DNA from: a virus
Virus genome (UHGV): UHGV-0097019
Direction: 5' to 3' (one strand)
DNA: 11,714 bases
A model generated the notes under the pieces. The model did no database searches and was not told the DNA's origin. It was given only the letters and a program-made list of their open reading frames with translations. How positions within the stretch are numbered: position 1 is the stretch's first letter; each line of letters starts with the position of its first letter. The position numbers were made by a program, and so were the translations under genes. Positions 2,883 to 11,714 of this stretch are shown in pieces.

Positions 2883-4703
2883 TTATGCCTGAGTACGCAG
2901 CGCTTCAAGGCGGCGCAGGTCGAAGTCGTTCAGTTCGTCGGTGTAGTCAGCAGTGATTGGCGCTGGCCATTCACCTGTGTCGAATCCGGTTGCGATATTG
3001 CGCATCGCTTTGCGGTACTCGAGCATACCCAGCTCCAGTAGTTCAGCGGATGCCTCGATGATGGCGATCCAGTGGTAGTTCTCGTCTTTGTTGACGAAAA
3101 TCCAGAAGAACTGATCCAGCGCTGCGGTTTCGCAGTACATAGCCGCGCTCAGGTGATAATCACGTTCAATAATTTCCCGGTGTAGCCTGGCGCGCAGGCT
3201 TTCCTGCTTAACATTCCACATGCTGATGGTTTTCAGGTCAGCACCGATACGCACGCCGTCTAGGTCGATCTCAAGGTCAGGGCGCACACGAACTTCCAGT
3301 CCCGTCTCCTCGTCAAAGCCAAAGTAGCTCACCTCAACGGCGCGGCTCGGGTGGGTTAGCAGCATGCCTGCGGTCGGGTGCGAGAGCAGTGCTGACTGAA
3401 TTGCCTGCGCGGTGGCAAGTTGCTGGTGGGTAACCAGCACTTTCCCTTCCGGGTTGTTGCGCCACGCATCGAGCAGCTCGTCGGCGAACACTGCATCTGG
3501 TTTGACTGCCTTCACGGCCTGAATCAGATCGGCCTTCGTGCCAGAGACTTTCAGCGGTTGCAGCTTCTGAGCTTCCTGCGCGACCAGGTCAGGATTGATA
3601 ATCGCAAGTTGTTCGAGTAGTGCGTCGCGGCTGCCGCTGGTTTTAATCTGCGCTGGCAGGGTGGCGTTGTACTCTTTGATGCACGCCTTCATTGCTGTTG
3701 CTGTCTTCTTCTGATCTGCATCGATACGTTGGAATTCAGCTGGCAGCGCCATATAGTTCTGCGCCGTTTCATCCAGGCTAGCGCCCAGCGGCACCAGCGC
3801 TGGCAGGGTGGCGTTGTATTCATCCAGCAAAGCTTTGATATCGTCTGCGCTCAGTTGCGCTGGCAGGCTGGCGTTGTACTCATCAATAAACGCGCGGATC
3901 GTTGCCGTGGTGGTAAATGCACCTTCCGGAATTACGGGTTCAACGCTAAATTCTTCATCGAGCTGTTCTGGCTGCAACGCCAGCGCATGTACCAGGTTTC
4001 CCATGTCCAGCACTGAGGAGCGCTCTTTGACGATGGTTTTCTCAACGTGGCGCGCATTGAAGTACATCAGCGAAACGCGCGCATCTTTTACCTGGGTGGA
4101 ACTGATGCCGTTGGCAGCGTGGTAAACCTCGTTCGGCAGACCTTCATAGCGCCCAGGCTCGAAGTAATCGGGGTAAAAAACAGCTTGTTCGTCAGATTGC
4201 GCCTCTGGCTCGACGTGTGCCAAAACTGGTTCAGTCTGGTTTACAGAATCGCTATTTTGAGCGACAGATTCCGTATTTTGGTTTACATCGGCCTGCTGGC
4301 CGGGATGTGACTCTTCACCAGTTTCCAGACTGCTTTCGCCTGACTGCATTTCATTACCAACATTTTTTTCATCACTGACAGTTTCTTGAACCTGCACATT
4401 GCTGGTGGTTTCCGTAGCCTGTTTCGTGCCATGAGTTGCTGAGTTCTGCAGTAAAGCCGTAACATCGAATATTCCGTTGCCGACATTTTTAACCAGTTCT
4501 TGTTCGGCTTTATGTGGTTGTGCTGTCGCTTCCTCTGCGCGGCGGCGTGCTTCTTCTTCACGTACGCGTTGCAGGTTCTCTTCGTGAGTGCAGAAGGGTT
4601 TGCGTGGAGACTCCTTACTTTCAGGTTGGGGAATTTCCTGTGTTGCGGGCTCAGCTTCATGCAATGGCAATAACTCAACAGCAGCATTAAACGCAGCAGT
4701 CAT
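2883..4703 (-). CDS. recE: RecE-like exonuclease VIII (PD-(D/E)XK nuclease) with acidic/Q-rich N-terminal region and internal repeats
   Basis: 606-aa ORF. C-terminal half contains ...ETGLEVRVRPDLEIDLDGVRIGADLKT..., consistent with a PD-(D/E)XK motif, and an upstream YHAANGISSTQVK segment. Gene order with the recT-like gene matches Rac-type recET. N-terminal ~170 aa is low-complexity (E/Q/S/T-rich). Confidence 0.6.
   Translation of the reverse strand: MTAAFNAAVELLPLHEAEPATQEIPQPESKESPRKPFCTHEENLQRVREEEARRRAEEATAQPHKAEQELVKNVGNGIFDVTALLQNSATHGTKQATETTSNVQVQETVSDEKNVGNEMQSGESSLETGEESHPGQQADVNQNTESVAQNSDSVNQTEPVLAHVEPEAQSDEQAVFYPDYFEPGRYEGLPNEVYHAANGISSTQVKDARVSLMYFNARHVEKTIVKERSSVLDMGNLVHALALQPEQLDEEFSVEPVIPEGAFTTTATIRAFIDEYNASLPAQLSADDIKALLDEYNATLPALVPLGASLDETAQNYMALPAEFQRIDADQKKTATAMKACIKEYNATLPAQIKTSGSRDALLEQLAIINPDLVAQEAQKLQPLKVSGTKADLIQAVKAVKPDAVFADELLDAWRNNPEGKVLVTHQQLATAQAIQSALLSHPTAGMLLTHPSRAVEVSYFGFDEETGLEVRVRPDLEIDLDGVRIGADLKTISMWNVKQESLRARLHREIIERDYHLSAAMYCETAALDQFFWIFVNKDENYHWIAIIEASAELLELGMLEYRKAMRNIATGFDTGEWPAPITADYTDELNDFDLRRLEALRTQA
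3651..3882. repeat. Three near-identical 24-bp intragenic direct repeats (CGCTGGCAGG[G/C]TGGCGTTGTA[C/T]TC at 3651, 3799, 3859), each encoding EYNA(S/T)LPA in the RecE-like protein
   Basis: Seen directly. Reverse complement GAGTACAACGCCACCCTGCCAGCG translates to EYNATLPA. Protein context: IDEYNASLPAQ, LDEYNATLPAL, IKEYNATLPAQ. Confidence 0.8.
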
Positions 4704-4996: not shown

Positions 4997-5025
4997 ATTA
5001 AATCACTGGTTTATATATATGTCAA
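4997..5025 (-). promoter_or_regulatory. pL-like early-left promoter: -35 TTGACA (5025..5020), 17-bp spacer, -10 TTTAAT (5002..4997) with upstream TG (extended -10)
   Basis: Consensus -35 read on the minus strand. Located just past the terminator of the repressor operon and directed into the recE/recT operon. Overlapped by a repressor-operator-like repeat. Confidence 0.4.
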
Positions 5026-5061
5026 CTTAAGGTTAGTGTTAATTGTAAATCTGAGGTTTAT
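4999..5061. promoter_or_regulatory. Candidate left operators: two copies of a 16-bp motif (TAAATCACTGGTTTAT at 4999-5014; TAAATCTGAGGTTTAT at 5046-5061), 47 bp apart
   Basis: The same motif recurs twice at 47-bp spacing in the repressor-cro intergenic region (6474-6489, 6521-6536). ATTGTAAATCTGAGGTTTAT (5042-5061) and ATTGTAAATATTTGGTTTAT (6470-6489) share 17 of 20 positions. Confidence 0.45.
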
Positions 5062-5099
5062 GTGGCTGGGTTTTGTGACACGTCTGCAGAATCGCAGGC

Positions 5100-5127
5100 A
5101 AAAAAAATCCCGACGCGTGGTCGGGAT
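5100..5127 (-). terminator. Rho-independent terminator ending the repressor operon
   Basis: On the minus strand the RNA reads AUCCCGAC-CACGC-GUCGGGAU followed by seven U (8-bp stem, 5-nt loop), about 70 nt after the stop of the 5200-5721 gene. Confidence 0.75.
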
Positions 5128-5199: not shown

Positions 5200-5721
5200 C
5201 TAAAAGAAGTGCATAAAAGCTTTGTACAGCCCTGTACCAATGGCGATAATCGCAGGGACACCTAAGAGAATCGCCAATTTAGCATCAGAGATTTTCTTGT
5301 CCACTGTGTCTGATGAGGGCTTTTTGTCTACAGACTCTTTGATACTAGACAGCCTCTCCAAAACTACAGCCATATTTTTGTCCAGTGAATTCACTGTCGT
5401 ATCAACTTTTGAAACTGTGTTTTTTATCTCGGCAACATCTTTCTTGATGTGGGCAACTTCAACCTCAAGAATAGCCAATCTCTTTTCCATGTCGTCACCT
5501 CCATCTTCAGTTGACGTATGAATGATTTCAGTATCATCCATAGCAACTGATGTGACAATCCGTTTTTGTTTATCCGAAGCGGCAAAACTACAAGCACCCA
5601 TAAGGAAGGTTGCTTGGCTCGAAGCTACTGATGAAAACTCTAAGCCTACTGTAGCTCCGCTATGGTCTGAATATGCAATCAATAACTTCCCTTCACCAAG
5701 AGATGATTGAGCCGCATCCAT
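5200..5721 (-). CDS. Uncharacterised tail-anchored membrane protein: N-terminal globular region, acidic linker, coiled-coil, C-terminal transmembrane helix
   Basis: 173 aa from ATG 5719-5721 (the track starts at the adjacent TTG). Coiled-coil-like segment MEKRLAILEVEVAHIKKDVAEIKNTVSKVDTTVNSLDKNMAVVLERLSSIKESV. C-terminal hydrophobic stretch LAILLGVPAIIAIGTGLYKAFMHFF. AT-rich codon usage distinct from flanking phage genes. Second gene of the repressor operon. Confidence 0.65.
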   Translation of the reverse strand: MDAAQSSLGEGKLLIAYSDHSGATVGLEFSSVASSQATFLMGACSFAASDKQKRIVTSVAMDDTEIIHTSTEDGGDDMEKRLAILEVEVAHIKKDVAEIKNTVSKVDTTVNSLDKNMAVVLERLSSIKESVDKKPSSDTVDKKISDAKLAILLGVPAIIAIGTGLYKAFMHFF

Positions 5722-5727
5722 CAATTA

Positions 5728-6009
5728 TTATTCCTCAAACATACTTTTTAAGGATTGATAAAAATCATAAGCCTTTTGTTTGCTTAAAGTCACAGACACA
5801 ACTTTGGTTCGCTGCATGCCCTTGACGACTATATCCGCATTATCCGTACCGATGATCGGGCTGCTATTCAGGAACACAAAATTGTAAACTTCGTAACCGG
5901 CATTTTGTGTGCCGATTGTTACGACACCGTCAGCATTGGTCTCGATGAAATTTTTCGCTTCGATTACATCATTAAGATGCATAAGTTCGACGGTTGTTTC
6001 TTTAGACAC
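5728..6009 (-). CDS. Uncharacterised small soluble protein (93 aa), first gene downstream of the repressor
   Basis: GTG start at 6007-6009 with GGAGG Shine-Dalgarno 5 nt upstream. Ends with a double stop (TAA TAA) 6 nt before the next gene's ATG. AT-rich. No family recognised. Confidence 0.65.
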   Translation of the reverse strand: MSKETTVELMHLNDVIEAKNFIETNADGVVTIGTQNAGYEVYNFVFLNSSPIIGTDNADIVVKGMQRTKVVSVTLSKQKAYDFYQSLKSMFEE

Positions 6010-6073
6010 CGAATCCTCCAGAAGATATTAAATCTTGAAATATTTTTATTACATGGAATTAGATACTACTGGT

Positions 6074-6463
6074 TTAGGTTTGCTCACCTTGCGATCGAAT
6101 CCGACCCTTCATGTACTTCTCGTACAGCTCATCTAACTCTTTCAGGCGAAGCGCAAAAATGCGGAGCATGTTCTGCTGCTCTTCTTCCGGTAACTGGCGG
6201 TAGAGCTCGAGCAAACGCTGTTCGTCCGGTTTGAGACCGTCTTTCTCCCCAACGTCTTCACCGAGTAGCCAGGCGACAGAAATACCAACAGCGTCGGCTA
6301 TGGCCAGTGCCGATTTCTTACTAATCACGCCTTTTTTGAACCAGCCGTTTACGGCCTGAGGGGTGACTCCAGCTATTCTTGCCATGTCTGCTTTGGTAAC
6401 GCCGCGATCAGTGATCTCAGTAAGGCGCTCCACCAGAACGAGGTTGGGTTCTTCTTTTCTCAT
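6074..6463 (-). CDS. Prophage repressor, XRE-type HTH, DicA/RacR-like
   Basis: 130 aa from ATG 6461-6463. N-terminal HTH (VTKADMARIAGVTPQAVNGWFKKGVISKKSALAIADAVGISVAWL). C-terminal LKPDEQRLLELYRQLPEEEQQNMLRIFALRL resembles the DicA tail (LSPKELELLELFNALPESEQ, from memory). No LexA-type S24 peptidase motif. The 219-aa ORF in the track is an upstream extension across the divergent promoter region and is rejected. Confidence 0.8.
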   Translation of the reverse strand: MRKEEPNLVLVERLTEITDRGVTKADMARIAGVTPQAVNGWFKKGVISKKSALAIADAVGISVAWLLGEDVGEKDGLKPDEQRLLELYRQLPEEEQQNMLRIFALRLKELDELYEKYMKGRIRSQGEQT

Positions 6464-6469
6464 ATGGTC

Positions 6470-6536
6470 ATTGTAAATATTTGGTTTATGCACGCAATAA
6501 ATCCAAAGTTTGCATGAAGTATAAATCTGTGGTTTA
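6470..6536. promoter_or_regulatory. Divergent immunity control region: PRM-like promoter for the repressor (-35 TTGCGT 6497..6492, 16-bp spacer, -10 TACAAT 6475..6470, minus strand) plus operator-like repeats (6474-6489, 6521-6536, and an inverted partner at about 6497-6507)
   Basis: The -10 ends about 6 nt before the repressor ATG and no Shine-Dalgarno is present, implying a leaderless transcript as for lambda cI from PRM. Repeat motif shared with the pL region. The rightward promoter for the cro-like gene is not cleanly resolved (candidate TTGCAT 6510-6515). Confidence 0.4.
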
Positions 6537-6565
6537 CTTCTGCTATCAATAAGCAGGAGAAGCAC

Positions 6566-6784
6566 ATGTCCGCACTCGATAAAGCAATTAAAGCCGCTGG
6601 CTCTGCCAGAAAGCTCAGCATCGCGCTTGGTGTGACGAGTATGTCTGTAAGTCATTGGAAGAATCGTGACCAAGGGATCGTCCCGCCAAGCTATATCTTC
6701 CCGATTTTCAAAATGACAGGCGTAACCCCCCACGAGCTGCGCCCTGATCTCTATCCAAATCCCACTGACGGATTACCAAAGTAG
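6566..6784 (+). CDS. ydaS: Cro-like HTH protein, YdaS family
   Basis: 72 aa, AGGAG Shine-Dalgarno. Divergent from the repressor. LSIALGVTSMSVSHWKNRDQGIVPPSYIFPIFKMTGVTPHELRPDLY parallels E. coli YdaS (LLGVSPPSVNQW...ELRPDI, recalled from memory). Confidence 0.75.
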   Translation: MSALDKAIKAAGSARKLSIALGVTSMSVSHWKNRDQGIVPPSYIFPIFKMTGVTPHELRPDLYPNPTDGLPK

Positions 6785-6795
6785 GAGCACTGACA

Positions 6796-7353
6796 ATGCA
6801 AACACTTTCTTTTCAACAGAATAACAGAGCGCCATCAGAGCACCTGAAATTCCAGTATCAACACAGTGAGGCTGAAGGCCAGCCGGTCGATCACCGGGCT
6901 ATCTGTTCTGCCGTCCGCGCCTGGGCGGCGGCAGAGGGCCGCGTGGCGGTCGCTCTGGCGATTAAAGAGGCTGCCGAACAGGCCGAGCTTGACAGCATTG
7001 ACATGACCGGCAGCGCCGATGTGTGGAACGTGAAGCTGTTTCGCTGGCTGGACAACCACGAGAAATCACCGGCCTACCGGGCGAACGTCGAGCAGCTGGC
7101 GCCGGTAATAATTTCGGTTCTGCCGCTGGCGTACCGGGATCGCGTGATTAAGCACGACTGCTTTGCGGTTCGTGTCGCCAGGTCGGTGAAAGAAGACGCT
7201 GAGGCGATACAGGCTGTCGTCCTCAAAGCCCCCAGACACGAACGGATGAAGGAAATCAGCGAGAGCATCGTAGCCAAGCTCTACCTGGACGGACCTGATT
7301 CTGTGGCGCCCATTATGGCGATGGTTACAACGATGCTGGGTGGTGCGCTATGA
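6796..7353 (+). CDS. YdaT-like / CII-like regulatory protein
   Basis: 185 aa, AGGAG Shine-Dalgarno 9 nt upstream, 11 nt after the ydaS-like stop. Assignment rests mainly on synteny (racR-ydaS-ydaT arrangement) plus loose similarity; not verified. Confidence 0.5.
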   Translation: MQTLSFQQNNRAPSEHLKFQYQHSEAEGQPVDHRAICSAVRAWAAAEGRVAVALAIKEAAEQAELDSIDMTGSADVWNVKLFRWLDNHEKSPAYRANVEQLAPVIISVLPLAYRDRVIKHDCFAVRVARSVKEDAEAIQAVVLKAPRHERMKEISESIVAKLYLDGPDSVAPIMAMVTTMLGGAL

Positions 7354-7437
7354 CGGGCTCAGAAATGGCGAAAGCCGCGGTGCTCGAACACCAACGGCTT
7401 TCAGGTGCAAAAACTGTGCGTAATTGCGGAGAACAGT

Positions 7438-8349
7438 ATGTCAAATACCGCTGAAATATTCAAATTCCCCACACAGCAGGGGAAACAGGAGAGCAGCATG
7501 GCTGAACTGGAGAAAGGCTATTTGCGCCTGGCCAACCAGATTCAGGATGCCCTGTGTATCGTCGAACTATCCGGGCGCGAGTTCCGGGTGCTGAATGCTA
7601 TCGTTCGTCTGACCTATGGCTGGTCTAAGAGTTCTGACCGCATCGCCAATAGCCTCATTGCAGATAAAACGACGCTGAAGGTGAAACACGTCTCTGAAGC
7701 CGTGTTGAGCCTTGCCTATCGGAACATCATCATCCTGCGCCGCATTGGGCAAACCAGATACATAGGGATTAATACCAGCCTGGATAAATGGGCGTATACC
7801 AAGCCAAATTGCATGAAGTGTCCAGCGGTGTTTCCTGCTGCTGAAGTTGTCACATGGGTTATTACCATCCCTGAATTCAGGGATAGCAATTTTACCCCTT
7901 CAATCATCCCTGAAAACGGGGATAACCATCCCCAAAAACAGGGAGAGGTATCCCTGAAAACAGGGAACACCAAAGACATTCTTCCAAATACAAATATAAA
8001 TACAGATCTAACCCCCTCTAATCCCCCAAAGGGGAAGGGTAAGTTTGACCCGCTGACGATTCCCGTTCCTGAGTGGCTTGATTCTGTGTCCTGGAGTGAG
8101 TGGGTGGCCTACCGCCAACAGTCTGGCAAAGCCATCAAGACCGAAATGACGGTCACCAAAGCATTCAAGTTGCTCAAGGCTTGCCTGGACGCTGGGCATG
8201 ACCCCGTTGATGTGATCAACACCAGTATCGCCAACGGGTACCAGGGACTGTTTAAACCGAAGTTCGCTCTCAACGCTCGCAAAACGGGCAGGGATGTGAA
8301 CCGCATTTCTGAGCCAGACAAAACAATCCCACCCGGATTCAGGGGGTAA
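7438..8349 (+). CDS. Replication initiator with lambda O-like N-terminal domain
   Basis: 303 aa from ATG 7438 (GGAGAA Shine-Dalgarno; the track starts at GTG 7405). N-terminus NTAEIFKFP...LSGREFRVLNAIVRLTYGWSKSSDRIANSLIADKTTL matches the Phage_rep_O N-terminal pattern. Iterons lie in the linker-coding part, as in lambda O. Confidence 0.8.
   Translation: MSNTAEIFKFPTQQGKQESSMAELEKGYLRLANQIQDALCIVELSGREFRVLNAIVRLTYGWSKSSDRIANSLIADKTTLKVKHVSEAVLSLAYRNIIILRRIGQTRYIGINTSLDKWAYTKPNCMKCPAVFPAAEVVTWVITIPEFRDSNFTPSIIPENGDNHPQKQGEVSLKTGNTKDILPNTNINTDLTPSNPPKGKGKFDPLTIPVPEWLDSVSWSEWVAYRQQSGKAIKTEMTVTKAFKLLKACLDAGHDPVDVINTSIANGYQGLFKPKFALNARKTGRDVNRISEPDKTIPPGFRG
7867..7967. repeat. Lambda-type replication origin iterons inside the O-like gene: four 18-bp dyad-symmetric repeats, followed by a moderately AT-rich stretch to about 8010
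   Basis: ATCCCTGAATTCAGGGAT (7867-7884), ATCCCTGAAAACGGGGAT (7906-7923), ATCCCCAAAAACAGGGAG (7928-7945), ATCCCTGAAAACAGGGAA (7950-7967); the last three are spaced 22 bp. Close to the lambda ori iteron consensus TCCCTCAAAACGAGGGA (from memory). Confidence 0.65.
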
Positions 8350-10029: not shown

Positions 10030-10072
10030 GGGGCTATTGTTTTTTAACAAATGCCCCTCATTTAACTTTTTT
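10030..10072 (+). terminator. Possible intrinsic terminator after the HTH pseudogene
   Basis: Interrupted hairpin GGGGC-TA-TTGTT-TTTT-AACAA-AT-GCCCC (10030-10057) followed by a T-rich stretch TCATTTAACTTTTTT. The stem is bulged and the U-run is not contiguous. Confidence 0.35.
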
Positions 10073-10448
10073 GTGTGTTAAGTCCAATTCTGACCCCACA
10101 CATAAAATCACCAATACCTGCGCCAACACTGTTCCCATCAGCAACATAATCACCTTTGAAAGCTAATTTCCCATCCATATAGAAGAATCTTATCTCCCCA
10201 TATCCACTATCACAGTCGGCATCTTTAATACTAACTTTGTAGTACTCTACTTTTTTATTTTTTGTTTGATACATGAACAAGGCAGATGAATCACCTTTTA
10301 CATTTCTAAATGTGCCTTTTTTTGCTGAAAAAATGCCATCATCAGCTGTAGTAACCTCAACCCAGTTACTTGTCGTTTCAGCAAAAGCAACACTTGCAAC
10401 AAAAAGAGCAGAAAAGCCCAGTAATGCGATTTTCTTAGCCATAAACAA
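10062..10448 (-). CDS. Small secreted/periplasmic protein with N-terminal signal peptide
   Basis: 128 aa. MFMAKKIALLGFSALFVASVAFA-ETTS reads as a Sec signal peptide with an AxA cleavage site. Two Cys in the mature part. Strongly AT-rich. Confidence 0.6.
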   Translation of the reverse strand: MFMAKKIALLGFSALFVASVAFAETTSNWVEVTTADDGIFSAKKGTFRNVKGDSSALFMYQTKNKKVEYYKVSIKDADCDSGYGEIRFFYMDGKLAFKGDYVADGNSVGAGIGDFMCGVRIGLNTQKS

Positions 10449-11142: not shown

Positions 11143-11714
11143 CTATCCTGCATCTTCTTCGACATTGTATTTTCGTTGCTCAATATCCCATGGAAGCGCA
11201 GGTTGTTTGCGAACTAGTTTTCTTTTGCCGTTTGAGAAAAAATAAGTTCTGAGTTCTAAAAAATGGCGGCGTTTTTTCGTTTGAGGCTCATAGGTGATAA
11301 GAAAAAAAATCAAAGGCCTGCTTGCTTCACTCCATATTCTACTTGCTTTTTCAATAACAATATTGATGTTTTCATGCTGACAATATGAGATGAATGTGGA
11401 GAAATAGCACTTGTCGTTTTTTTCAAGCAGTTTGTCTAACTCGTTAACGCTATCTCTGTCTGCCTGATTATACTCCCACTCAACATAGGTTAAAATTTGA
11501 TTGTCTGGATATTGTAGGACCGCATCGGTACGCCCGCCTTGTTCAAAAAATGTTCTTGCGCCCATTAACTTTGCACACTCGCGCATGACCAGGCCAACAT
11601 GAATGGTCCAGTTGGAACGGTTGATATATTCACCTTTGAACACAGGGAAATCTTGATACCACACACAATTAAACAGACAGATAAAATCGCGCTCTACTCG
11701 CTTCAACGCCTCCC
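11143..11714 (-). CDS. Hypothetical protein, probably 5'-truncated by the window edge
   Basis: ORF of at least 187 aa on the minus strand, still open at the window end (only a TTG at 11704-11706 inside the window). AT-rich. No family recognised. Confidence 0.45.
   Translation of the reverse strand, partial: EALKRVERDFICLFNCVWYQDFPVFKGEYINRSNWTIHVGLVMRECAKLMGARTFFEQGGRTDAVLQYPDNQILTYVEWEYNQADRDSVNELDKLLEKNDKCYFSTFISYCQHENINIVIEKASRIWSEASRPLIFFLITYEPQTKKRRHFLELRTYFFSNGKRKLVRKQPALPWDIEQRKYNVEEDAG

Follow-up and report, generated by a model that had tools for sequence, protein, structure and literature searches.

A repressor-linked two-gene cassette in the immunity region of a Rac-like Escherichia coli prophage: a candidate phage-exclusion module with a predicted nested isoform

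The early region of a Rac-like lambdoid Escherichia coli prophage, which makes up an 11,714-nucleotide (nt) stretch of the virus genome UHGV-0097019 (hereafter the window), carries behind its repressor gene two small coupled genes, here called A and B. We propose that this cassette is a horizontally mobile accessory of the immunity region and that the pair acts as a phage-exclusion module in the manner of lambda RexAB or P22 SieB/Esc, a reading that we favour while placing its likelihood a little short of even. The anti-phage function is one that we infer from features typical of defence cargo: the position between repressor and pL, the strict linkage of A and B, the swapping of partners and of transmembrane (TM) segments, the change of cargo in a sibling prophage and the low G+C content (GC). 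The cassette stands near Rex and SieB in position and logic but belongs to neither in its sequence and architecture. Two aspects of gene B had been overlooked in the original prediction, which was made from the DNA letters alone: a promoter and ribosome-binding site nested within the gene, newly described here, and a second half of the protein that, on profile evidence, stays constant across a larger, modular superfamily. The cassette and its immediate surroundings comprise the following elements.

6474-6489 and 6522-6537: two operator-like 16-nt repeats TAAATCnnnnGGTTTAT, putative oR, in the repressor/cro intergenic region, spacing 48 nt
6074-6463, minus strand: prophage repressor with a helix-turn-helix (HTH) domain of the HTH_3 family, DicA/RacR-like, 129 amino acids (aa) from ATG 6463
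6015-6019, minus strand: Shine-Dalgarno sequence GGAGG of gene A, 5 nt upstream of the GTG; duplex -9.3 kcal/mol
5728-6009, minus strand: gene A, GTG start 6009-6007, 93 aa, soluble, predicted to be beta-rich with a C-terminal helix
5200-5721, minus strand: gene B, 173 aa, ATG 5721, stop 5200, beginning 6 nt past the A stop
5530-5558, minus strand: internal promoter-like sequence TTGTCA-N17-GATACT, 38 nt upstream of the M78 ATG, flagged by the promoter scan
5498-5502, minus strand: internal Shine-Dalgarno sequence GGAGG, 7 nt upstream of the M78 ATG
5200-5490, minus strand: predicted in-frame short isoform of B, 96 aa (M78-F173), coil and TM only, with a family-invariant ATG at 5490-5488
5099-5127, minus strand: intrinsic terminator ending the repressor-A-B unit, stem 5127-5107 followed by T8; hairpin -10.9 kcal/mol
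4999-5014 and 5046-5061: two further copies of TAAATCnnnnGGTTTAT, putative oL, spacing 47 nt
4997-5025, minus strand: pL-like early leftward promoter read from the sequence, -35 TTGACA at 5025-5020, 17-nt spacer, -10 TTTAAT at 5002-4997

This arrangement bears out the coordinates originally given for two coupled genes behind a DicA/RacR-like repressor, the first with a GGAGG and the second starting 6 nt later, as well as the clean terminator, a hairpin with eight T residues, placed just before a pL-like promoter (TTGACA-17-TTTAAT). The analogy drawn with the lambda order cI-rexA-rexB-tL-pL also holds, since the same pair lies behind many repressors and, in HK544 (HK544_041/040) and VT1-Sakai (ECs2991/ECs2992), exactly between cI and the annotated Timm terminator/pL; in these two phages pRM is annotated too and A is about 74% identical. 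The repressor of the window matches Pfam HTH_3 (E 1.5e-6) and the NCBIfam DicA subfamily (E 1.9e-8). No terminator-like site was returned by the scan between its stop (6074) and gene A, and 12 of 15 representative loci have, 3' of their B homologue, a terminator equivalent to that of the window; in HK544 it is the annotated Timm. A 73-nt spacer separates gene B from the terminator in the window. The pL-like promoter is missing from the promoter scan list because the scan requires an A at position 2 of the -10 hexamer.

The partially palindromic repeat TAAATCnnnnGGTTTAT occurs exactly four times, as two pairs, and the oL pair both flanks and overlaps the pL-like promoter; from their sequence and placement, the four copies are probably the operators of this prophage's immunity type. 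With one pair around pL and the other in the repressor/cro gap, the cassette would be framed by putative oL and oR, within the immunity region. No Shine-Dalgarno sequence precedes the repressor ATG at 6463, which has an operator copy 11 nt away, and this suggests a leaderless or short-leader message of the pRM type; RefSeq/PGAP starts the repressor at GTG 6493, overlapping the operator copy. GC is 0.40-0.41 over 5251-6150 versus 0.52-0.60 in the left arm and 0.51-0.62 in the right, and this fits, together with the difference in cargo between sibling prophages, the earlier suggestion of an AT-rich, horizontally acquired moron.

As for expression, the Sakai homologue of A (ECs2991) is among only 394 O157 proteins quantified by isobaric tags for relative and absolute quantitation (iTRAQ) in anaerobic cultures without inducer, and it belongs to the 155 proteins that are higher in unfiltered rumen fluid relative to lysogeny broth (LB) in the same data. 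This detection fits the proposal that the cassette is expressed in the lysogen, without proving the co-transcription with cI that had been part of it.

Gene A is best called from its GTG start (93 aa), in view of the family-invariant residues S2 and L9 and of the GGAGG located 5 nt upstream; the RefSeq entry WP_001472165.1 begins at an internal ATG (84 aa). Hydrophobicity analysis of A shows no TM or hydrophobic segment, and its match to phrog_12039 (E 1.6e-47) leads to a family without known function. Both A and B are under purifying selection, with nonsynonymous differences per site (pN) of 0.07-0.18 against synonymous differences (pS) of 0.41-0.86 in comparisons with homologues and a ratio (dN/dS) of about 0.1; that the two are spurious open reading frames (ORFs) is ruled out by this analysis. 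Structure prediction followed by Foldseek had been proposed as a check. The AlphaFold models of A and B are of low confidence (predicted local distance difference test, pLDDT, of 57 and 47), which we attribute to shallow alignments, and Foldseek gave no significant match for A: the best were beta-sheet-plus-helix folds of the PC4/Sub1 type (E 0.28-0.7, TM-score 0.35-0.39), which are at most a lead. In PDB sequence searches A had no match, and B matched only generic coiled coils. The hint that A and the N-terminus of B might be related did not survive: BLASTP aligns an unrelated stretch at E 0.86, hhalign gives a probability below 1% with shallow and with deeper profiles, and the predicted orders of secondary-structure elements differ.

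The first description of the domains of B, with an acidic linker, a heptad coil and a single C-terminal TM next to a soluble A, agrees with our sequence-feature analysis. The protein (WP_023568813.1 in RefSeq, 'hypothetical protein'; an alternative TTG start lies one codon upstream of the ATG) consists of an N-terminal beta-hairpin-plus-helix domain (residues 1-50), an acidic Gly-rich linker with a net charge of -7 over residues 59-78, a coiled coil of seven heptads (78-131), a KKPS motif that is invariant, and a C-terminal TM (147-167). The coil keeps one unbroken register from M78 to V131, with L, I, V or M at 16 of the 17 a/d positions, and residues about 147-167 form the single hydrophobic segment (Kyte-Doolittle value, KD19, 1.96). 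In B, the beta-branched character of the a/d core would suit a trimer or higher oligomer. B matches phrog_12602 (E 2.7e-54) and, through its C-terminal half, phrog_3556 (E 3.2e-28), neither of which has a known function.

Several lines of comparison indicate that gene B very probably yields two products, the full 173-aa protein and a 96-aa form comprising coil and TM, the latter predicted to have its own transcript. In the family alignment the linker is otherwise variable, yet V56, T64, G74, G75 and M78 are invariant, and these residues can be explained at the DNA level by the promoter and the ribosome-binding site that they encode. An exact GGAGG precedes the coil-start ATG in 15 of 18 distinct DNA contexts, which include lineages with linkers wholly different in length and sequence; its spacing is 7 nt in 13 of them and 10 nt in 2, and the remaining three contexts have GGGAG or GGGGG. 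The Gly codon at -4 is GGA in 15/18 cases versus 9/54 at other linker Gly positions (Fisher p 5.7e-7). The duplex of the internal Shine-Dalgarno sequence with the 16S tail is worth -10.6 kcal/mol in the window, against -6.2 at the full-length start of B, and ranges from -9.3 to -10.6 overall. The internal promoter is kept in all eight examined lineages with a full-length B, with GATAAT in one and TTGTGT in another, and its hexamers persist despite changes in the residues they encode (IVT, VVS, LVT, LVS; DT, DN) while the 17-nt spacer is free to vary: across the four lineages that diverge most, identity is 83% and 92% in the hexamers, as against 36-41% for spacer and flanks. Several variants with a short N-terminus have a -10-like hexamer 36-39 nt upstream of the ATG. 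Codons 1-77 of B are also conserved as protein (dN/dS 0.12-0.14). These nested signals would account for the disagreeing lengths of B in genome annotations, many of which give the short form alone (the 96-aa P0107 on 280 contigs, besides numerous 90-93-aa entries).

The suggested check, whether the pair recurs downstream of other prophage repressors and varies between related prophages, came out positive on both counts. A B homologue directly follows A in all 31 IMG/VR loci found with the A profile, at a gap of 3-6 nt or, in L043, with an 11-nt overlap, and the repressors upstream in these loci belong to at least seven sequence types; many Enterobacterales prophages have the pair. Twelve of 5426 complete E. 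coli genomes contain the segment 5100-6080 itself at 100% identity, a thirteenth matches at 100% over 73% of the query, and IMG/VR has the segment on prophage contigs of about 40 kb; any allele of A is found in 106 of the 5426 genomes (about 2%), mostly O157:H7. An exhaustive profile search of 1.84 billion representatives returned only 19 matches to A. Some of these are proteins of 85-103 aa with 28-34% identity, and in prophages of Salmonella and Pantoea proteins of this kind (about 30-35% identity) again adjoin a B homologue behind cI. In a species-representative genome collection the sole match to the A profile is a fragment on a 541-bp scaffold of Kocuria sabuli (L012), most likely a contamination. 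The family is confined to prophage contexts in every locus examined.

Beyond this pair, the second half of B (Gly-rich linker, Met, coiled coil, KKPS and TM) defines the superfamily mentioned above: its profile matches 203 proteins, every one of them encoded by Enterobacterales and lacking any Pfam domain. Indels in the coil measure 7, 7 and 20 residues across the family, consistent with a coiled coil. Full-length B is found with three different C-terminal TM modules, and the type-1 coil-TM module is also found with unrelated short N-termini, in which case the upstream partners differ: proteins of 87, 88 and 101 aa, a beta-rich protein of 139-151 aa or a Cys-rich protein of 119 aa. The first three align individually with A at hhalign P-values of 5e-4 to 2e-3, co-linearly over about 73 columns, and the profile of A against that of these A-like partners reaches 92.6% probability (E 4.5e-7); judged by these alignments, they are distant homologues of A. 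At the level of sequence, a theme of an A-like protein with a tail-anchored coiled-coil protein thus recurs in diverged forms, and all repressor-linked versions examined occupy the slot between repressor and pL. A sibling prophage in E. coli 1368KP, with identical Cro and YdaT and a near-identical repressor, carries different cargo there (a second HTH gene together with genes for an A-like protein of 101 aa and for a coil-TM protein of 211 aa bearing a (PA)n tail), which marks the slot as a site of cargo exchange.

Three observations were made on related loci. In the 1368KP prophage (L068, 4143-4971), tandem HTH repressor paralogues lie upstream of the A-like and coil-TM pair, and the second paralogue differs by one residue in 131 aa from the repressor of L062, which is of another immunity type, suggesting movement of cassette plus repressor. 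In L058 and L059 (2056-2800), a 137-aa coil-TM homologue and an overlapping 119-aa Cys-rich protein are encoded in a moron cluster beside tail genes, outside the immunity region. Finally, other prophages contain, between the coil-TM gene and pL and convergent to the former, a conserved family of small ORFs (63-74 aa, motif ...RLEAKRRSVGNVIHKG..RDAAE..RKG); no such ORF is present in the window, where the 73-nt spacer stands instead. The examples located, all on the strand opposite the cassette, are these.

L009, 6403-6627: ORF with the RLEAKRRSVGNVIHKG motif
L044, 4055-4246: ORF with the RLEAKRRSVGNVIHKG motif
L045, 3794-4000: ORF with the RLEAKRRSVGNVIHKG motif

Searches of annotated families identified no relative of known function for either protein. 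With A and B, Pfam and NCBIfam gave sub-threshold coiled-coil noise only (SlyX, LPP, FlaC), and PADLOC (2023) likewise gave only coiled-coil noise and no match to any of its models; Rex, SieB and BstA were unmatched. Rex families are not among the Pfam, PHROG or PADLOC matches at E up to 1, and neither Pfam nor PHROGs gave any homology to SieB. Apart from the absence of a PADLOC match, BstA is a single large protein whereas the cassette consists of two small genes. Database names for relatives of A and B are uniformly 'hypothetical protein', and a literature search by locus tag, accession, phage name and topic, of incomplete coverage, found no paper on function, only a comparative genomic hybridisation table and a proteomics table.

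Among known systems, lambda RexAB is close in layout: directly downstream of the repressor, and on its strand, two genes form a unit that ends at a terminator before pL and combines a soluble with a membrane protein. Its position downstream of cI, its mechanism, in which a sensor activates a membrane effector, and the sensitivity of its activity to stoichiometry are described in PMC12894663. There is, however, no sequence similarity. With its long coiled coil and just one C-terminal TM, B is unlike the polytopic RexB, and its single C-terminal hydrophobic segment offers no counterpart to the polytopic ion channel of RexAB. The promoter pLit, which lies within lambda rexA, also allows rexB to be expressed by itself; in A-B, by contrast, the predicted nested promoter and ribosome-binding site lie within the membrane-protein gene itself and would give an N-terminally truncated isoform. 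In this respect B is reminiscent of P22 sieB, a membrane-associated exclusion gene encoding two in-frame peptides whose switch or balance is critical for exclusion (PMC13397905), the likeness being one of two in-frame products predicted at the sequence level only. SieB differs in lying in the pL operon region as a single gene without an A-like partner, and in lacking homology to B. Other prophage pairs, for example gp30/gp31 of mycobacteriophage Butters and gp30/gp31 of Sbash, consist of one cytoplasmic and one membrane protein, are encoded close to the immunity region, are expressed in the lysogen and defend against heterotypic phages; proteins and hosts are unrelated to those of A-B, and their membrane partners are polytopic. 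As a separate observation on gene B, a promoter-like sequence TGTACA-16-GATAAT at 5223-5250 on the plus strand is antisense to its 3' end and could matter, given the antisense sas RNA of P22 sieB.

From its sequence, the cassette is predicted to be transcribed with the repressor in the lysogen, transcription stopping at its own terminator before pL. A would be a small cytoplasmic protein and B a tail-anchored inner-membrane protein, the coil serving as a stalk that holds the N-domain in the cytoplasm. If the pair does exclude phages, A, the N-domain of B or both may be the specificity or sensor parts, and the coil-TM module, oligomerising in the membrane, would be the effector, which might act by permeabilising or depolarising the membrane or disable the infected cell in some other way. 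The amount of long relative to short B could set or restrain this activity, the short form tuning it through mixed coiled-coil oligomers. The perfect seven-heptad coil, the invariant KKPS and a type-1 TM more conserved than the coil are effector-like features of B, as far as its sequence allows a judgement. A broader proposal, which we regard as rather doubtful, is that these loci represent an undescribed exclusion superfamily, in which a tail-anchored coiled-coil effector would form an oligomeric membrane lesion, a sensor-coupled long isoform and a bare coil-TM short isoform would provide timing for defence in the style of holin and antiholin, and interchangeable partners (A-like, beta-rich of 140-150 aa, or Zn-ribbon-like) would set which phages are sensed.

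A number of points weigh against the exclusion hypothesis. A and B have no homology to any known defence protein, nor to RexA, RexB or SieB, and the low confidence of both AlphaFold models means that support at the level of the fold is absent. Co-transcription with the repressor is deduced from the layout, and the internal promoter and ribosome-binding site are predictions from sequence. The bulk of B is cytoplasmic, with only about five periplasmic residues, so that its sequence gives no sign of a classical periplasmic injection block. TM sequences differ between the subtypes of B, and the TM could be a mere anchor rather than a pore; across genera, on the other hand, conservation is higher in the type-1 TM than in the coil, which argues against a passive anchor alone.

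Of the alternatives, a role outside defence survives best, although we consider it unlikely: the pair, expressed with the repressor, would serve lysogenic conversion or prophage housekeeping, for instance as a tail-anchored membrane stress or ribosome-associated factor, or as a modulator of the lysis-lysogeny switch or of induction. The predicted topology of B is the same as that of host tail-anchored proteins such as ElaB and YqjD, and the higher level of ECs2991 in rumen fluid could indicate a role in host physiology. In lambda, RexA too has a modulating effect on the switch (PMC12894663). The Pfam and NCBIfam searches gave no match to families of these kinds, however, and the shuffling of partners and domains and the replacement of cargo in the sibling are more readily expected of arms-race genes; the restriction to prophages in the loci examined is a further point against this role.

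Somewhat less likely again is superinfection exclusion at the entry step, in which membrane-anchored A-B on the cytoplasmic face would block genome translocation without killing the cell, by occupying or modifying a host inner-membrane component used by incoming phages. It shares with the RexAB-like reading the evidence of position, linkage and diversification; moreover, contact with a host membrane protein could explain the strong conservation of the type-1 TM, one sub-lineage is found among genes of the tail region, and the exclusion gene gp15 of HK97 occupies a comparable moron position. Known injection blockers, however, usually expose their functional part to the periplasm, whereas B is almost wholly cytoplasmic, and the nested short isoform fits the regulation of an effector more easily than a static block.

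A third possibility takes B for a lysis-associated protein of the XhlA type (PF10779), a coiled-coil, tail-anchored holin partner that has been misplaced or co-opted, and thus for phage housekeeping. XhlA is a membrane protein needed together with the holin XhlB for lysis by PBSX (PMC5589764). Its architecture of about 90 aa with an N-terminal coiled coil and a C-terminal TM matches the predicted short B, full-length matches to PHROG 'hemolysin' families are weak (1e-5 to 1e-6; phrog_937 at E 1.4e-5 for B and 1e-6 for P0010, and also phrog_1193) and one UniRef entry carries the name 'Hemolysin XhlA'. We nevertheless hold this to be very improbable, because B has no match to the Pfam XhlA model at E up to 1 (the relative P0199 scores 15.8 bits with it, below the gathering cut-off of 34.7), because XhlA belongs to a lysis cassette with holin and endolysin whereas the family never adjoins either gene in the examined loci, lying in the immunity region of Gram-negative lambdoid prophages or, in two IMG/VR loci, in a tail-region moron cluster, and because B is in the repressor operon, on when lysis genes are off.

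The slot behind a prophage repressor is the classic home of rexAB, and most natural cargo found there is unannotated. Since the carriers include the medically relevant Stx1 prophage of O157:H7 Sakai and the laboratory phage HK544, direct testing is possible in strains already available. Should phage exclusion prove to be the function, a widespread modular family would be added to the known systems, with a single-pass, tail-anchored coiled-coil effector unlike RexB, and gene B would join sieB/esc as the second natural case in which a truncated isoform from within a defence gene serves to regulate it.

The rest of the window contains the following genes, further genes coming after that for replication protein O.

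5-1243: integrase
between integrase and RecT in the gene list: DUF4060 protein
1759-2877: RecT
2883-4703: RecE-like PDDEXK protein
6566-6784, plus strand: Cro-like regulator of the YdaS family, divergent from the repressor (Pfam YdaS_toxin, E 1.4e-13)
6796-7353: YdaT/CII-like protein
7405-8349: replication protein O

Rfam and tRNA scans of the window were empty. Two other AT-rich stretches were seen, both on the minus strand. The ORF at 11143-11706 (187 aa, GC 0.38) has no match in Pfam and PADLOC searches. The gene at 10062-10448, located where the window is richest in AT (GC 0.33-0.36), matches neither Pfam nor PADLOC; it encodes a 128-aa protein with an N-terminal segment resembling a signal peptide and looks like a second moron.

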